Positions 1,395 through 11,898 of a stretch of 64,000 nucleotides of DNA are shown here, in pieces. The notes beneath the pieces were generated by a model that worked only from the letters and a program-made list of their open reading frames with translations, ran no database searches and had not been told where the DNA came from. The position numbers and the translations under genes are program-made. Position 1 is the stretch's first letter. Each line of letters opens with the position of its first letter. Source of the DNA: Candidatus Fraserbacteria bacterium (GTDB taxonomy: Bacteria; Bipolaricaulota; Bipolaricaulia; RBG-16-55-9; DRXL01); assembly GCA_947085185.1 (NCBI GenBank), contig CAMTVK010000021.1, forward strand, positions 72,409 through 136,408. Direction: 5' to 3'.

Positions 1395-1958
1395 ATGAAA
1401 GAACACAAAGCGATAGCTGATCTCGTGCGGCGTTTGCTCGCTCATATTGGGGAGGATCCCCAGCGCGAGGGCCTGCGCCAGACCCCACAACGCTTCACAG
1501 AGATGCTCGAAGCGCTCACCATGGGCTATCGCCAAGATCCAAAAGAGATCATCTCCGGGGCGATCTTCCCCGTAGCCTACGACCAGATGATCGTCGCCAA
1601 AGATATTCTCTTTTACAGTTTGTGCGAGCATCATATCCTGCCCTTCTTCGGCAAAGCTCATGTGGGCTATATCCCCGACGGCAGGGTGCTGGGCATGAGC
1701 AAGATCCCCCAGATCGTCGAACACTTCTCGAAGAGGCTGCAAATACAAGAGCGCATGAGCGAGGAGATCGCCGATTTCTTAATGGAAGCGCTCACTCCCA
1801 AGGGGGTCGGCGTCGTCGTCGAGGGCTTTCATCTGTGTATGGCCATGCGAGAGCTCCAAAAAGACGCATGGCTTGTCACCAGCGCTGTCAGGGGCCTCTT
1901 CAAGAGAGATCCGCGCACCCGCGCGGAGTTCATGGAGCTTATTGGGCGACGCTTATGA
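1395..1958 (+). CDS. folE: GTP cyclohydrolase I
   Basis: GEDPQREGLRQTP, SLCEHHILPF, RLQIQER and HLCMAMR motifs. Confidence 0.95.
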   Translation: MKEHKAIADLVRRLLAHIGEDPQREGLRQTPQRFTEMLEALTMGYRQDPKEIISGAIFPVAYDQMIVAKDILFYSLCEHHILPFFGKAHVGYIPDGRVLGMSKIPQIVEHFSKRLQIQERMSEEIADFLMEALTPKGVGVVVEGFHLCMAMRELQKDAWLVTSAVRGLFKRDPRTRAEFMELIGRRL

Positions 1959-6635: not shown

Positions 6636-6679
6636 TTGACAAAATCTTTGTTTGCCCATATAATTAGGACTCCTAATTA
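6636..6679 (+). promoter_or_regulatory. Consensus promoter with overlapping palindromic operator
   Basis: TTGACA(6636)-17-TATAAT(6659). Perfect inverted repeat TAATTAGGA-C-TCCTAATTA at 6661-6679. Confidence 0.85.
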
Positions 6680-6706
6680 AATCTCGCAACGCTCAGGAGG
6701 TTCGCT

Positions 6707-7285
6707 ATGACGACTATTCCCGGCTACGCCTACGGGAGCGCCGCTCCCTCGCCCGTCACAATGAAAGAGCTCAATGAGCTCAAGCAAGCCGTGCTCTTCA
6801 CCCCCGAAGACGAAAGATATCTCAAGATGGCCGGCGAAGTCCTCAAAGACCAGATCGAAGAAGTGCTCGATCTGTGGTACGGCTTTGTGGGGTCCCATCC
6901 CCACCTGGTCTATTATTTCTCTGGGCCAGACGGCAAGCCCGACGCAAATTATCTTGCTGCGGTGCGCAAGCGCTTCGGCCAGTGGATCTTGGACACGTGC
7001 ACCCGTCCGTATGATCAGACTTGGCTGAACTATCAGCACGAGATCGGGCTGCGCCACCACCGCACCAAGAAGAACCAAACAGATAGAGCTCGTTCAGTGC
7101 CCATCGTCCCATTACGATATCTCATTGCGTTCATCTATCCCATCACGGCGACGATCAAGCCCTTCTTGGCCAAGAAGGGGCACAGTCCCGAAGATCTTGA
7201 GAAAATGCATCAGGCATGGTTCAAGTCGGTGACGCTCCAAGTGGCGTTGTGGAGCTTCCCCTATGCGAAAGATCGAGATTTCTGA
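6707..7285 (+). CDS. Protoglobin
   Basis: IPGYAYG, LDLWYGFVGSHPHL, YQHEIGLRHHRTKKNQTD, MHQAWFKSV. Confidence 0.92.
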   Translation: MTTIPGYAYGSAAPSPVTMKELNELKQAVLFTPEDERYLKMAGEVLKDQIEEVLDLWYGFVGSHPHLVYYFSGPDGKPDANYLAAVRKRFGQWILDTCTRPYDQTWLNYQHEIGLRHHRTKKNQTDRARSVPIVPLRYLIAFIYPITATIKPFLAKKGHSPEDLEKMHQAWFKSVTLQVALWSFPYAKDRDF

Positions 7286-7875
7286 TGAGTGAACTCGACG
7301 AGAAGCTGGTGGCGGCGCTGGAGCGGCTCTCGCATGTGATGCGAACGCTTCTGTGGGAAGAGGCTGTGCAGAGCCGCCTCAGCCCCATTCAGATTCAGAC
7401 GCTGATCTATCTGAGTTCACATCCGGAAGAGCTTTGCCGGGTAGGGCAGCTCGCCCACGAGTTCGGGCTCACCCCAGCGACCATCAGCGATGCTGTGGAT
7501 GCCCTCGCAGAGAAGGGTCTTCTTGTACGTCGGCCCTGGCCTGAAGACGGGCGCGTCTTGACGTTGTGCTTAACGACCGAGGGCCAGCGTCAAGCGCAAA
7601 GGCTTTCGCGTTGGACCGAAGCGCTTCAAGAGCAGATCGCGCCCTTCCCCCTCGCAGAGAAGGAGCGTGCCTTGAGGTTCTTCTTGGAGCTCATCGAGCG
7701 GCTCTATCGCGCGGGGATCATCACAGTTGCGCGGGTGTGCTTGACGTGCCGGTTCTTCCGCGCGAACGCCCATCCCAACTCGCAGACCCCGCACCATTGC
7801 GCATTAATGGACAAGCCCTTGGCCGAGAGCAAGCTGCGCGTCGATTGCCCCGAGCATGAAGCGGCTCATTGCTGA
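7285..7875 (+). CDS. MarR family regulator with C-terminal Cys/His metal-binding tail
   Basis: wHTH (LSPIQIQ..LAHEFGLTPATISDA..DGR), then CLTCRFF..HHC..DCPEH. Translationally coupled to protoglobin. Confidence 0.88.
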   Translation: MSELDEKLVAALERLSHVMRTLLWEEAVQSRLSPIQIQTLIYLSSHPEELCRVGQLAHEFGLTPATISDAVDALAEKGLLVRRPWPEDGRVLTLCLTTEGQRQAQRLSRWTEALQEQIAPFPLAEKERALRFFLELIERLYRAGIITVARVCLTCRFFRANAHPNSQTPHHCALMDKPLAESKLRVDCPEHEAAHC

Positions 7876-8423
7876 GCGCTCCTAGAGCTTTTTGCCAACA
7901 GCCAGATCACTCCCACCCCTAACAGCACATCCCCCACGCTGAACGCATTAGCAAACGGCACCCAGCTTGGCACCCAAAAGATATCTCCCAAAAGATTGAG
8001 CTTCGTCTGATCGCTCATCATGATGACATTCCCGAAGACGCCTTCTGTCAGCAATCTCTCGACTGTGGCTGTTCTGCCCGCAGCCCGCAGGGCTTCAAGG
8101 GACGCTGGCATATGCCCCCCATTGACGGTAATGACAAGAAAATTCGAGAGCATCCCCAGGGCCATCAACCACAGGGCCTTCTCGCGATAATTGAGCCCCA
8201 CAAAGAGCAGTAAGAGCAGATACGACCCTATGTGTAAAAACTCCATGCCCCAAGTGACGAGGGGCTTCGATCCTGCCCCTAGGGGCAGGATCAGAATTTG
8301 CACGAGCACAGCGAGCAGCACCAGCCAGCTTGCACGCAGTTTCAGCTCTGCTAAATGGGCTATCCCTCGATGGCGTACTAGTCCAACGAGAAGCCCTAAG
8401 AGAATCGCCCAGAGGAGAACCAT
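7866..8423 (-). CDS. DUF5317-like membrane protein
   Basis: NFLVITVNGGHMP and LLGDIF...NAFSVGDV motifs with about 5 TM helices. Confidence 0.8.
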   Translation of the reverse strand: MVLLWAILLGLLVGLVRHRGIAHLAELKLRASWLVLLAVLVQILILPLGAGSKPLVTWGMEFLHIGSYLLLLLFVGLNYREKALWLMALGMLSNFLVITVNGGHMPASLEALRAAGRTATVERLLTEGVFGNVIMMSDQTKLNLLGDIFWVPSWVPFANAFSVGDVLLGVGVIWLLAKSSRSAQQ

Positions 8424-9703
8424 AGGGGTTCTTTCAGTTCATCGGAGATGACGCGCACGAGCGCCTCGACGACCTTTGGGTCGAACTGGCGGCCGCTTTC
8501 TGCTTGGATGAGGCGCACGGCCTCGGCGGGCTCGTAGTGTCTGGGTTTCCCTTGGGATTCGCGATACAGACGATCGCTCGTCAGAGCATGGTAGACATCA
8601 GCGACGTGGATGATGCGTGCGCCCAGGGGGATCTGTTCGCCCTTGAGGCCGTCGGGGTAGCCGGAGCCGTCCCAGCGCTCATGTTCGTATTTGACCAAGT
8701 GGGCGGCTTCGCTGTACATCTCTAAGTTTTTGAGCAGATCGAAGCCGATGACGGTGTGTTGTTTGACGAGCTGCCATTCGGGGTCATTGAGGGGGCCGGG
8801 CTTATTGAGGATATCGTCGGGGATGCCGACCTTGCCGATGTCATGGACGAGTGCGGCGGTGCGGATCGTCTCGATTTGGTCTTCGGGGAGTTCCATCTCG
8901 CGCGCGATCTTTTCGGCCAAGTCCGCGACTTCTTCGGAGTGTTCTGCCGTGTAGGGATCGCGCTCGTGGAGCATTTTGACCATGGTTTCGATGGTGCGTT
9001 GGGTTTCCCTGCGGAGCTTGGAGTAGCCGCGCAGGGTGAGGTGGACGCCGACGGCAGGGATGAGCACCAAGAGCGTCTGCCAGGGAGCTTGGACGTAGAC
9101 GACAGCAGTCAAGATCGCAATGATGCCGATAGCAAGAACTTGGAAGGGGAGATGACGAATATGGAAGGTCACGAGTTTTGAGAACCTGATGCGCTGAGTT
9201 AGGTGAAGGATCCCAGAAACGAGGATTGTATTTGTTGCCGCGTAGCCGGCATAAGCGAGAACGAGCGGAACTATCTCAGCCAACGATTTATACGGTGGCG
9301 AATGGCCGCCAAATGCCTGAAAGATCAAGACAGCTGCCCAACTGCTGAGTACTATTTGGCTTGTGTTGAAAGCAACACGAGAGAAAAAATATAGCGGATC
9401 CTCTCGTAAACGATACCATCGCAAGACGATCTCAGCAAAGAGCGTTCCTAGTAGGACGCTCCAGAGCATTGCTGGCGGCCCGGCGATGAACAGTACGGCA
9501 CAGTATATGATCTCAGATGTTGACATACTGCGCCGTGAAGCAATTTCGACTTCGAAGAGGTCAGCCAAAAACGCAAGGATCGTAGCGATCAGCACCAGCA
9601 TTATCGGTGTCGGATCGTTCTGGATGCGAGGCAAATAGAAACTAAGCGGGGCAAAACTTAGAAGGACGACAAACCAGACATACACTCTTACTTGCCAACT
9701 CAT
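8396..9703 (-). CDS. Membrane-anchored HD-GYP cyclic dinucleotide phosphodiesterase with multi-TM sensor domain
   Basis: About 7 N-terminal TM helices. RDPYTAEHS, VHDIGK, HERWDGSGYPDG, DVYHALTSDR. Start set at MSWQV because the longer ORF begins inside a terminator. Confidence 0.9.
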   Translation of the reverse strand: MSWQVRVYVWFVVLLSFAPLSFYLPRIQNDPTPIMLVLIATILAFLADLFEVEIASRRSMSTSEIIYCAVLFIAGPPAMLWSVLLGTLFAEIVLRWYRLREDPLYFFSRVAFNTSQIVLSSWAAVLIFQAFGGHSPPYKSLAEIVPLVLAYAGYAATNTILVSGILHLTQRIRFSKLVTFHIRHLPFQVLAIGIIAILTAVVYVQAPWQTLLVLIPAVGVHLTLRGYSKLRRETQRTIETMVKMLHERDPYTAEHSEEVADLAEKIAREMELPEDQIETIRTAALVHDIGKVGIPDDILNKPGPLNDPEWQLVKQHTVIGFDLLKNLEMYSEAAHLVKYEHERWDGSGYPDGLKGEQIPLGARIIHVADVYHALTSDRLYRESQGKPRHYEPAEAVRLIQAESGRQFDPKVVEALVRVISDELKEPLWFSSGRFS

Positions 9704-9721
9704 GTTGGCAGCATTATATGC

Positions 9722-9755
9722 AAAATAAAAAAGGGAGTCCAATCCGGACTCCCTT
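9722..9755 (-). terminator. Intrinsic terminator after the small peptide gene
   Basis: AAGGGAGTCC-GGATT-GGACTCCCTT followed by TTTTATTTT on the minus strand. Confidence 0.85.
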
Positions 9756-9776
9756 GGGGAATTTCAGAGTTTGAGC

Positions 9777-9920
9777 TTATGTCCACTTCTGACCGGCACC
9801 GCTCATGAGCACGAAGGCGCTGATGATAGCGAGAATATAGAGCACCCGCGCCCCGATCTTCTCCTTCACCCAACCGGCTACTCGCTCTGCTACCTGCCCG
9901 TTGTATTCTCCCCACTTCAT
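9777..9920 (-). CDS. 47-aa small peptide MKWGEYNGQVAERVAGWVKEKIGARVLYILAIISAFVLMSGAGQKWT (candidate signalling-peptide precursor)
   Basis: Strong AAAGGAGG RBS, own promoter and terminator, one hydrophobic helix and a short polar tail. Confidence 0.75.
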   Translation of the reverse strand: MKWGEYNGQVAERVAGWVKEKIGARVLYILAIISAFVLMSGAGQKWT

Positions 9921-9956
9921 GGTCGTTGCCTCCTTTATGTTGTTGTTGATGGCCAT

Positions 9957-9985
9957 ATTTTATATGCACTTGTATGTTTTGTCAA
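9957..9985 (-). promoter_or_regulatory. Sigma70-type promoter of the peptide gene
   Basis: TTGACA-17 nt-TAAAAT. Confidence 0.75.
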
Positions 9986-10017
9986 GAGCTATAACAAAAA
10001 TCGCGAGTGATTCTTTT

Positions 10018-11403
10018 TTAAGAGGGCCGAAATTCCCGCCGAAAGACCCGCTCACCCCCAGTATCAATGTACTCCACCGTGAGCCGCCCGTCGCCTAAGA
10101 CCGTGATCTGCCCGAAATTCCAATGCTGATTGCTCCCGAAAATCCGCGTGGGATTGAGCGTTTCATCGAGCTGCCCCATGTACGACGTCAGGGCGCTCAG
10201 CGGCCCCGCAGTAAACTCATAAAAGTCTATCGCCCCATCGCGATTGGGATCATAGTGAATGACATCGATGAGGTGCTCGTCCCCGGTGAGCCAGACGACG
10301 TTCTTGATCTTGTTCTGCATGATGAAATCGCTGATCTCGATGAGCTCGCGCTCAAAGCCCGTCTCGCTCTCGCCGTTGGCCCAGCTGTCGCACGCCGCCG
10401 GACAATCCGAAGGGAACGAGAGCTTGACTGTCGAGGCAATGAACTTCCAGGTCGCGTTGGAGGTGCGCAGGCTCTCTTTGAGCCACGCAAGCTGCTCTCG
10501 GCCGAGCATGGTCTTATCTGGGCCATCGGGGCGCTTATTGTCGCTACGGTACTGCCGTGTGTCCAAGATAAAGATCTCGACGTGCTGGCCCCACCGGAAC
10601 GAACGATATAAACGATGGGGATCTTGGGGGTTCACCGTGATGGGGAAGAACTCGAAGAAGACTTGCCGACCGATAGCTAATCTCTGGGGATCTACGGTCG
10701 TGCCCGAAAAGTTATTGATCACCTCGTGATCGTCCCAGATCATATACAGGCTCGTAGCGGCGCGCGCTTTTTGATAGGGCTTATCGGCAAGCTGATATTT
10801 CTGCTTGGCCCGATATTCTTCTAGCGTGTTGGCGACGAACTCACTGCCGGGGGCATTGGGCGGACTAGGGCAGCGCTCGTCGTTATACACCGTGTCGCCG
10901 AGGAAGAGAAAGAAATCGGGCTGGGCTTCAGTCAAGTGATTGAAGATAAAATACTCTGGGCGGCGGCACATGCCCTGACCCCCCAAGTCAGCGCTCCAGG
11001 CGAATTTCACGGGACTAGGGGCGTTGGCTTGTGGAGCCGTGATGAACGTCCCGGCGACGGGCGCGCTCTGCTCACTCCCCAATACTTGGCGCACGCGATA
11101 GGAATAGCGTGTCGCTGGAGTAAGCCCCGTGAGCACGACCTTGCCGGTGAAGTCCGACTCTGGCTTGAGGACAACAGGCTCGGCGCGCTGCACGTCGCGG
11201 AAGTCCTCGCTGGTGCTGTACTCCACCACGAGCGTTGAGTTGGGGGCTTCCGCCCCGCGCGCCCAGATGATCGCGCTCTGGGGGGTGACGTCGCCGGAAG
11301 AGACCCCATGGGTGATCGCAAGTTTGGCGCCCGCTCCCACACTGAAAGGAGCAAGAGCCCCGCCGATGAACAACAGAACCCCGACTCTGAAGAGATTTTT
11401 CAT
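10018..11403 (-). CDS. phoD: Alkaline phosphatase D (PhoD) family
   Basis: HGVSSGDV, FLGDTVYND, IWDDHEV, LDTRQYR, LTGDEH. AGGAGG RBS before MKNLF. Confidence 0.88.
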   Translation of the reverse strand: MKNLFRVGVLLFIGGALAPFSVGAGAKLAITHGVSSGDVTPQSAIIWARGAEAPNSTLVVEYSTSEDFRDVQRAEPVVLKPESDFTGKVVLTGLTPATRYSYRVRQVLGSEQSAPVAGTFITAPQANAPSPVKFAWSADLGGQGMCRRPEYFIFNHLTEAQPDFFLFLGDTVYNDERCPSPPNAPGSEFVANTLEEYRAKQKYQLADKPYQKARAATSLYMIWDDHEVINNFSGTTVDPQRLAIGRQVFFEFFPITVNPQDPHRLYRSFRWGQHVEIFILDTRQYRSDNKRPDGPDKTMLGREQLAWLKESLRTSNATWKFIASTVKLSFPSDCPAACDSWANGESETGFERELIEISDFIMQNKIKNVVWLTGDEHLIDVIHYDPNRDGAIDFYEFTAGPLSALTSYMGQLDETLNPTRIFGSNQHWNFGQITVLGDGRLTVEYIDTGGERVFRREFRPS

Positions 11404-11492
11404 AGTCCTGCACCTCCTGAGAGAGATTATAGCCATACTGTGGCGATCTGCCAAATGAGTCGGCAGCCCAATGGAGCATGCGCTCATAAGCT

Positions 11493-11702
11493 TCATAAAT
11501 ATTTTTTGAACTCTTCTTCAGTCATGCCGATCTGCTTCAGGATAGCCCGATAGAGCCCAGACTTTAGCTCTCGGCTATGGACTGGCACGGTTGTCCATCG
11601 TCCATCAGGATGGGCATAGATAGCCTCACTGCCCTTCTGGCGTTTGCGGCGAAACCCCAGCTTTTCTAGGGCCTTCTGCACCTCAGGGGAGCGCGGCGGC
11701 AT
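11493..11702 (-). CDS. hicA: HicA family toxin
   Basis: LEKLGF..RQKGS..HPDGR.TTVPVH...ILKQIG. The usual GSH His appears as Glu (KGSE). Confidence 0.85.
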   Translation of the reverse strand: MPPRSPEVQKALEKLGFRRKRQKGSEAIYAHPDGRWTTVPVHSRELKSGLYRAILKQIGMTEEEFKKYL

Positions 11703-11898
11703 AGTCTGGTTCTGGGATGGGCTGCCCAGCTTCCCTCAAATGCTCGATGACAAGCTCCATCGCATCAAGGACGTTCTGCAAGGTCTCTTCATATGTTTCG
11801 CCCTCAGCGAAACATCCTGGAAGTGCAGGGACTTCCGCCCAAAAGCCCCCCTCTGGCGCAGGGTGAATGACGACTCTATACCGGCGCTCGCTGCTCAT
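11683..11898 (-). CDS. hicB: HicB family antitoxin
   Basis: EGGFWAEVPALPGCFAEGETYEE. Confidence 0.9.
   Translation of the reverse strand: MSSERRYRVVIHPAPEGGFWAEVPALPGCFAEGETYEETLQNVLDAMELVIEHLREAGQPIPEPDYAAALP

Follow-up and report, generated by a model that had tools for sequence, protein, structure and literature searches.

A conserved module of small peptide, MASE9-like HD-GYP receptor and DUF5317 protein in Bipolaricaulota, with a possible cut-and-sense role in c-di-GMP control

The 64,000-nucleotide stretch of a Candidatus Fraserbacteria bacterium genome analysed here (contig CAMTVK010000021.1; hereafter the window) carries three adjacent genes on its minus strand, which encode a 47-residue peptide, a receptor in which a membrane sensor domain is joined to an HD-GYP domain, and a membrane protein of the family DUF5317. 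Judged by their recurrence across genomes, these genes form one conserved module, which is undescribed in the literature searched. We propose a cut-and-sense mechanism, with a probability of about one half, in which DUF5317 would cut the peptide, the freed tail would signal through the sensor, and the level of cyclic di-GMP (c-di-GMP) would be adjusted. That the peptide is the partner of the sensor in some form appears quite probable.

Conservation of the module

A peptide profile built from 22 peptides and applied at E ≤ 0.01 finds relatives in 109 of the 149 genomes of the phylum (59 of the 71 high-quality genomes), a count that includes the genomes behind the profile. DUF5317 is present in 131 of the 149, mostly as a single copy, and 106 of the 109 peptide-positive genomes carry both. 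Fifteen of the 18 genomes without DUF5317 also lack the peptide, a pattern in which one lost contig could cause both absences. Tandem peptide copies occur in many genomes, with up to 7 matches per genome, and some peptides are missed because many contigs break at these copies.

The linkage is clearest where DUF5317 was the sole criterion for choosing a locus: of 35 such loci, 23 show the order peptide–sensor–DUF5317, 6 end before the peptide site and 6 have no intact upstream sensor. The peptide is present at all 23 loci with an intact sensor and upstream DNA. An earlier note on this DNA, which had proposed the peptide as a signal, named the lack of a conserved small open reading frame (ORF) near DUF5317/HD-GYP pairs as grounds for giving the idea up; the search around DUF5317 finds such an ORF at 23/23 loci, so this objection falls away. 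Another 40 loci, picked by a nearby peptide match, serve for sequence variety and not for counts. Where the peptide lies away from DUF5317 (19 loci), a sensor stands directly behind it in 12, a contig edge intervenes in 6 and 1 has none.

The module also occurs in Actinomycetota and Bacillota. In an actinobacterial sample, 45 of 121 genomes carry DUF5317 (4 of these are unpublished and enter only this tally), and 10 of 23 Actinomycetota loci (176 kb) have a candidate peptide, whereas control stretches of 102 kb and 1.03 Mb gave 1 and 10 candidates, respectively. The trio is seen in all three plasmid-collection matches, namely in Subdoligranulum variabile, in Natranaerobius thermophilus, where the record has the genes frameshifted, and in Euzebya pacifica, where GGDEF-EAL is attached to the sensor and ATG/APQKWG closes the peptide (a slash marks the predicted cut). 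A genome-collection scan using one distant DUF5317 returned 3 loci only. In the literature searched, which covered few subscription papers, DUF5317 is named in no paper and nothing on this module was found.

Several variants of the layout were noticed. In Euzebya pacifica, a DUF5317 is fused to the front of an EAL-domain protein, giving about 850 amino acids (aa; L193:3839-6379), and several Bipolaricaulota DUF5317 frames are 930-1180 codons long (G217, G218, G212, G219, G202). Loci L041 and L062 have two tandem sensor-HD-GYP genes between peptide and DUF5317, and L044, from a genome that holds three copies of DUF5317, encodes a 31-aa hydrophobic peptide (1706-1798, minus strand) directly before DUF5317 and shows no sensor in the vicinity.

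The peptide and its tail

Codon statistics identify the 47-aa ORF as a real gene. Among 6 same-genus sequences (15 pairs), it is under purifying selection (synonymous differences pS 0.46, non-synonymous differences pN 0.10, pN/pS 0.23), and differences by codon position are 92/72/220, with 220 of 384 at the third. The earlier note called the peptide unannotated; gene callers already list the ORF, as hypothetical, in 8 of 8 look-ups, the 59-aa form excepted. That longer form was rejected, as its start at 9956 falls on the −10 box and it is absent from the collection searched.

The peptide begins with MKWG, followed by a basic n-region (17-25), a hydrophobic helix (26-40) and a short tail, which the basic residues ahead of the helix place outside by charge bias. 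Among 86 distinct peptides from 63 loci, from which those with N runs or without a K-W/F/L/C end were excluded, the tail lysine is invariant (86/86) and the following residue is tryptophan in 81. Four residues before this lysine (K−4) there is always a small residue (G, A, S, C or T; 86/86), the K−6 residue is aliphatic in 94%, and the residue after the predicted cut is A, E, Q or S, never C. Beyond the small residue, the tail is free in length, from 6 to 13 residues. The consensus, [LVIM]-x-[GASC]/[AE]-x-x-K-W, is in its sequence a lipobox without its cysteine, by the pattern that the available text of PMC6952399 gives for substrates of LspA. Cysteine stands at K−4 in 3 of the 86 and at K+2 in 3 of 86, and the window peptide has none; 7 lipoproteins found by pattern in the same genome end LAG/C, LSG/C, LTG/C and similar. 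The tail motif first written as GAGxKW has to be relaxed, as its second G is not conserved among the 86 peptides.

The letters K-W-G occur at both ends of the precursor, in the MKWG start (window 9920-9909) and in a KWG end in many peptides, and the N-terminal part is absent from some tandem copies and from all non-Bipolaricaulota peptides. NCBIfam holds no family for the peptide and gives chance membrane matches only, and an Atlas search with it returns only unnamed 44-48-aa clusters; the 655- and 658-aa members of a peptide cluster, considered as fusions, are fungal transcription factors.

The sensor domain and its apparent match to tail type

The sensor is, on a weak match, a divergent MASE9 domain: in the window it reaches 19.3 bits against MASE9 (PF20972), where the cut-off is 24.3. 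Among 62 relatives, 26 give a match at E ≤ 0.01, the strongest at 1.9e-10, and 5 of 44 database homologues carry PF20972. MASE9 domains have about 8 membrane segments and conserve aromatic and Asn/Ser residues, a pattern that the sensor shows. It has seven to eight hydrophobic stretches, with S61, F112, N113 and N158 invariant, W208 near-invariant, and E91, Q116 and Q188 as further invariant polar residues. MASE9 has no known ligand, and binding within the membrane has been proposed, in the part of bioRxiv 10.1101/2021.11.05.467447 available. No phenotype was seen when hdgA/hdgB were mutated in Streptomyces, and the authors of that study suspected that the signal needed for activation had been absent (PMC6205966, available part).

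The main evidence that the sensor reads the tail comes from family f8 (32 loci), in which two tail classes, E/Q (17) and A/S (15), were fixed before tree building. In the sensor tree, the 17 E/Q-tail loci form one clade (92/93, 1 change); the DUF5317 tree rejects this clade (4 changes, approximately unbiased test p 2e-13), as do HD-GYP plus DUF5317 together (p 9e-6). Five sensor columns separate the tail classes perfectly and no DUF5317 or HD-GYP column does so. Within genus g45, loci L152 and L153 combine E tails with E-type sensors, their HD-GYP domains are 78-81% identical to those of A-type neighbours and their DUF5317 sequences are interleaved with them; sensor data reject g45 as a clade (p 1e-39; group taken from an earlier tree). 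Partial correlations in f8 are 0.59 for tail and sensor, 0.26 for helix and DUF5317, and −0.02 for helix and sensor. That the f8 tail type tracks the sensor tree and not that of DUF5317 points to ligand–receptor matching. This gives moderate support to a reading in which the sensor, not DUF5317, recognises the tail, and it is likely that the tail is the signal and the sensor its receptor. A second apparent sensor swap involves L142 and L138, which are sisters on the HD-GYP and DUF5317 trees, a relationship that the sensor data reject (p 0.001).

DUF5317 as a candidate LspA-like peptidase

DUF5317 has five membrane helices and, across 92 of 92 homologues, invariant N78, G90, N94, N101, G103, P106, G116, D147 (7985-7983), F161, S162, G164 and D165 (7931-7929). 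Its predicted structure is confident (pLDDT 92.7), and positive-inside counts place both the loop holding D147 and the first part of helix 5, where D165 lies, on the outer side, which is also that of the peptide tail.

The last two-thirds of the protein probably form an LspA-like core, a reading of the predicted model to which several weak and not fully independent lines of comparison lead. For residues 56-180, LspA is first of 48,161 chains (5DIR, Z 5.6, root-mean-square deviation (r.m.s.d.) 2.9, 84 aligned, 23% identity; next 5.4). In a second structure comparison LspA takes ranks 1-3 of 123 (Z 6.7, 6.0 and 5.9; next 3.6), the best being 6RYO (r.m.s.d. 2.4, 84 aligned). With the whole model, LspA appears twice in the top 50 (6RYP, Z 5.4, r.m.s.d. 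3.4, 89 aligned; 5DIR, Z 5.3, r.m.s.d. 3.0, 92 aligned), and the top rows are generic hairpins that cover residues 28-80. Across all these LspA matches, Z ranges from 5.3 to 6.7 and r.m.s.d. from 2.4 to 3.4, with 83-92 residues aligned. Among the families matched by DUF5317, Peptidase_A8 comes second: 6 of 62 members match it at E ≤ 0.1, and every other foreign family is matched by 1. The 14 conserved LspA residues include D118, D136, G102, N106 and F132 in the available text of PMC6952399, and D147, D165, G90, N94 and F161 of DUF5317 are placed like these five; LspA N133 and A135 are S and G in DUF5317. An Atlas search with DUF5317 gave no usable match outside its own family.

By sequence, DUF5317 is not LspA itself, and the genome carries a separate LspA of its own. 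DUF5317 is likely to be the maturase of the peptide, as a candidate LspA-like aspartic peptidase. Of the double role of maturase and exporter that had been suggested for it, the maturase half thus appears likely by comparison, and nothing points to export.

The HD-GYP domain, its probable output and c-di-GMP in the genome

The HD-GYP domain aligns with that of PmGH (4MCW) at E 2.6e-40. H287-D288, G348-Y349-P350 and R378-x-Y380-R381 are kept in 63 of 63 receptors, and six metal ligands, H255, H287, D288, H316, H341 and D369, are likewise invariant. Y251 stands at PmGH E185, as in the binuclear type, whose reaction tends to go no further than pGpG (bioRxiv 10.1101/2021.11.05.467447, part available). 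The domain is likely to be active on c-di-GMP, which would probably be the output of the module.

The genome (96.8% complete) encodes one GGDEF protein, one HD-GYP protein, which is this receptor, and one DAC-family match, and a search for EAL in it found none; this HD-GYP domain is the only c-di-GMP phosphodiesterase found in the genome. Regular-expression motif scans for EAL, PilZ and DAC were too loose and were left unused. GGDEF occurs in 40 of 41 genomes, and the exception, G020 (92% complete), also lacks DUF5317 and the peptide.

Two c-di-GMP-I riboswitches score above cut-off in the genome. One, of type c-di-GMP-I-GGC (75.2 bits), stands before the gene for a 172-aa secreted protein in a cluster (G000:C19:51365-57609; L169:1867-8110) that also encodes a surface protein of PKD/SdrD type (1163 aa), a protein with a dockerin and a 107-aa protein that has two MshEN-like motifs and matches no Pfam family. 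This cluster is likely to be a c-di-GMP output locus. The MshEN motifs were found by a pattern taken from the available part of PMC5013675, and Pfam MshEN has no match in the genome. The second riboswitch (G000:C17:49345-49419; L170:5846-5920, minus strand; 50.7 bits) lies just before a Crp-type helix–turn–helix ORF, apparently truncated at its start.

Locus layout and expression signals

The layout claimed in the earlier note, from promoter and ribosome-binding site through the 47-aa ORF, terminator and TATAAT to the HD-GYP gene and overlapping DUF5317 gene, was recovered in full (Table 1).

Table 1 Features of the module in the window (SD, Shine–Dalgarno sequence)
Feature	Position	Strand	Basis or remark
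Sigma-70-type promoter of peptide gene, TTGACA-17-TAAAAT	9957..9985	-	Predicted; 11/12 consensus matches
Shine–Dalgarno sequence AAGGAGG	9929..9935	-	8 nt before ATG 9920
47-aa precursor peptide gene	9777..9920	-	C-terminus LMSGAGQKWT
Codons of predicted released tail A42-T47 (AGQKWT)	9780..9797	-	Predicted cut G41/A42
Intrinsic terminator (predicted)	9721..9755	-	Stem 9755-9731 and T run
Second promoter TGGACT-17-TATAAT	9713..9741	-	Overlaps terminator; 9 nt before receptor ATG, no SD
Receptor gene, 435 aa, membrane HD-GYP	8396..9703	-	HD_5 E 6.6e-40 (Pfam)
Divergent MASE9-like sensor domain, residues 1-235	8999..9703	-	MASE9 E 0.0012
HD-GYP domain, binuclear type, E340 for PmGH H276, H372 for PmGH D308	8396..8998	-	Sequence alignment
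DUF5317 gene	7866..8423	-	Pfam E 2.6e-38; 28-nt overlap with receptor gene

Promoter sites of this quality number 6 per 6 kb, against 2.5 ± 1.7 in shuffles, so that a single site alone is within chance; the identical TTGACA-17-TAAAAT recurs at all 5 same-genus loci, 63-65 nt upstream of the peptide, and 17 of 50 phylum loci have at least 10 of 12 promoter matches before the peptide. The peptide genes of relatives are likewise preceded by a strong SD. The terminator stem (−18.5 kcal/mol, z −2.85) is equalled by 1 of 200 shuffles, and a terminator-like structure follows the peptide in 23 of 62 loci.

With the second promoter so close to its start codon, the receptor mRNA is likely leaderless. 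This layout, with a TATAAT-like box near the receptor ATG and no SD, occurs in 22 of 29 loci outside f8 and in 0 of 32 in f8. The −10-like hexamer in those 22 loci lies 5-10 nt before the receptor start, and 30 of the 32 f8 loci have an SD; between f8 and the other families, the receptor start appears to switch between led and leaderless translation. A 448-aa receptor start at 9742 was rejected, being inside the terminator and unconserved.

Named homologues at 64-76% identity belong to Candidatus Bipolaricaulota/Acetothermia, which makes this the likely phylum of the window. An Rfam search of window 7000-11600 gave no match. Neither phoD (upstream) nor the marR and protoglobin genes (downstream) were kept as parts of the module, as the flanks vary between relatives. 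Downstream, on the plus strand (6636-7875), a perfect TTGACA-17-TATAAT precedes genes for a protoglobin and for a MarR regulator whose end is rich in cysteine; this pair converges on DUF5317. Upstream, on the minus strand (10018-11898), lie genes for a PhoD-type phosphatase and a HicB/HicA toxin-antitoxin pair, unconserved with the module.

Proposed mechanism and alternatives

In the proposed mechanism, the precursor would be produced in large amounts from a short transcript of its own and would insert with its N terminus inside and its tail outside. Its helix may lie in a groove formed by helices 3-5 of DUF5317, the position proposed for the signal peptide in LspA, and D147 and D165 would cut at G41/A42, a lipobox-like site with Ala or Glu in place of the lipidated Cys. 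The tail AGQKWT, with its invariant K and near-invariant W, would then bind among sensor residues S61, E91, N113, Q116, N158 and Q188 and tune the attached HD-GYP domain, and hence c-di-GMP, in either direction. The HD-GYP domain would oppose the single diguanylate cyclase of the genome, and the two riboswitches may relay the level, one of them to the surface-protein gene cluster. The signal may report cell density or only local diffusion.

A number of observations weigh against this proposal. For the LspA-like core, Z stays under 8 and, in the wide searches, within 1 of unrelated rows, and Foldseek with both DUF5317 models gives no match at E ≤ 0.001 (LspA E 3.5-5.1). Alignment by hhalign pairs both aspartates with those of LspA, but at a probability of 2% and E 0.021 over 32 columns. 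The best Pfam Peptidase_A8 (PF01252) E among the 62 relatives is only 0.0084, the window DUF5317 does not match PF01252, and the DUF5317 profile does not match any of the PDB sequences. Seven of the 14 conserved LspA residues (D21, K25, N52 and G54 of the cradle loop, D109, R110 and V116) have no sequence counterpart, and the 18-residue spacing of the aspartates is weak evidence, given that 19 of 23 LspA sequences of the phylum (loci L066-L095) have 14 residues between the catalytic aspartates. For the tail, one Actinomycetota peptide (L107) has V at K−4, and the conserved MKWG start is without explanation under the mechanism. The sequences behind the tail–sensor analysis are assembled metagenome bins, the HD-GYP tree alone does not reject the E/Q clade (p 0.20), and a single recombination tract could move both partners because peptide and sensor DNA adjoin. 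The f8 correlation is not repeated in 30 loci outside f8 (tail–sensor −0.01, helix–sensor 0.54), and the correlation permutations ignore kinship.

Some of these points would be at home in a different account, rather unlikely in our judgement, in which the peptide is an uncut, membrane-anchored mini-protein that docks helix and tail on the MASE9-like domain, as MgrB and SafA act on PhoQ, and DUF5317 either destroys it, so resetting the signal, or is a non-catalytic scaffold. The peptide is linked more tightly to the sensor than to DUF5317, its helix face and MKWG are conserved, and outside f8 it is the helix, not the tail, that tracks the sensor (rho 0.54); binding of a MASE9 ligand in the membrane has also been proposed (bioRxiv 2021.11.05.467447, available part). 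A cut site would better explain why the residue at a set distance from KW is always small and the tail beyond it free in length (6-13), tandem copies and a strong transcript of its own fit production in bulk, and in f8 the tail alone tracks the sensor. The cut itself might instead be made by a housekeeping protease, signal peptidase I or one of Eep/RseP type, with DUF5317 using its aspartates to bind, present or clear the peptide and not to cut it. We consider this improbable, even though the LspA scores of DUF5317 are weak and the S-G-A/G of the window lineage also fits the AxA rule of signal peptidase I; f8 has L at −3 in that register, against the rule, and DUF5317 is retained in 106 of 109 peptide-positive genomes, even unlinked. 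Pheromones are processed by housekeeping enzymes elsewhere (PMC7117660, in the text available), but a Cys-free peptide is no substrate for LspA as described in the available text of PMC6952399. It is least likely, and by a wide measure improbable, that the peptide is a structural or secreted product, perhaps a small toxin or a subunit like that of pili, which DUF5317 matures beside a merely co-regulated sensor gene. Strong expression signals, tandem copies and L044, with peptide and DUF5317 and no sensor nearby, would fit; the peptide stays by the sensor where DUF5317 moves, f8 tail type tracks sensor alleles, and the flanks examined hold no assembly, export or immunity genes.

The last step has an alternative compatible with any of these: the HD-GYP domain may be slow or dead and bind c-di-GMP or a partner protein, so that the output is not hydrolysis. 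PmGH H276 is replaced by E in 59 of 63 receptors and the D308 position is non-D in 58 of 63. In PmGH, H276A abolished activity and D308A similarly impaired it (PMC4159591, available part), and phosphodiesterase activity is likely rather than sure because both of these important residues are replaced. A degenerate partner, HdgB, exists in Streptomyces (PMC6205966, available part). A dead or slow domain nonetheless seems unlikely, as all 63 receptors keep GYP, RxYR and the six remaining metal ligands, and the genome, which has a cyclase and riboswitches, shows no other c-di-GMP phosphodiesterase in the searches made. Glu is also able to bind metal.

If the cut-and-sense proposal is true, a peptide pheromone would control a c-di-GMP enzyme directly, with no kinase step, for which the literature searched holds no precedent, and signal peptidase II chemistry would gain a second, lipid-free use. 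More tentatively, and with somewhat less than even odds, we suggest a widespread undescribed pheromone class, in which DUF5317 proteins would be lipid-independent LspA-derived peptidases, short A/E-x-x-K-W peptides would be ligands of MASE9 with c-di-GMP output, and exchangeable sensor alleles would define pherotypes; the module would then be the only brake on c-di-GMP in this small genome. The proposal gives the orphan MASE9 a candidate ligand, assigns DUF5317 a putative function together with its catalytic pair and specifies a six-residue peptide exactly, so that three unknowns can be tested together, and the module is also present in culturable hosts. Peptide signalling would here be built from unrelated parts.

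Comparison with known systems

What DUF5317 has in common with LspA (PF01252; 5DIR, 6RYO, 6RYP; PMC6952399) is a weak resemblance in the fold predicted for its last three helices, a pair of invariant aspartates at the outer face, the G-x3-N and F-x3-D motifs and the lipobox-like site in the neighbouring peptide. As opposed to the four helices of LspA, DUF5317 has five, and the outer beta element, which in LspA precedes helix 2, follows helix 4 in DUF5317. LspA cuts before a diacylglyceryl-cysteine, whereas the putative substrate of DUF5317 is cysteine-free.

The receptor has the same architecture as the MASE9-HD-GYP proteins Thermotoga maritima TM1467 and Streptomyces venezuelae HdgA, whose descriptions, in the parts of bioRxiv 10.1101/2021.11.05.467447 and PMC6205966 available, mention neither an upstream peptide nor DUF5317. 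The HD-GYP domain of the window lineage has EHE in place of HHE.

The parallel with agr drawn in the earlier note holds in logic and not in kinship. Like staphylococcal agr (AgrD-AgrB-AgrC-AgrA; PMC12733317, available part), the module has a short precursor, a putative dedicated membrane processing protein and a membrane sensor. By sequence comparison it is not homologous to agr: AgrB (PF04647) is not among the families matched by the 62 DUF5317 members, and the window protein matches DUF5317 only. No AgrB was found in the genome, though the control gave a signal in only 1 of 14 genomes, under cut-off. A thiolactone-ring cysteine is not conserved in the precursor (C in 3/86 at K−4 and 3/86 at K+2). 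The signal would lie at the very C terminus, and the sensor is fused to HD-GYP (GGDEF-EAL in Euzebya), giving a one-component c-di-GMP output in place of the kinase and regulator of agr. A further likeness is that tail variants appear to be matched to sensor alleles in family f8 of the module; the variable region of agr is a mosaic.

Enterococcal sex pheromones such as cCF10 (PMC7117660, available part) would share with the module, as proposed here, a short linear peptide from a signal-peptide-like precursor and signal peptidase II chemistry. The cCF10 pheromone lies ahead of the Lsp site; Eep releases it, Opp takes it up and PrgX reads it inside the cell (same source). In the module, the signal would be the segment that follows the cut, and it would be recognised at the membrane.

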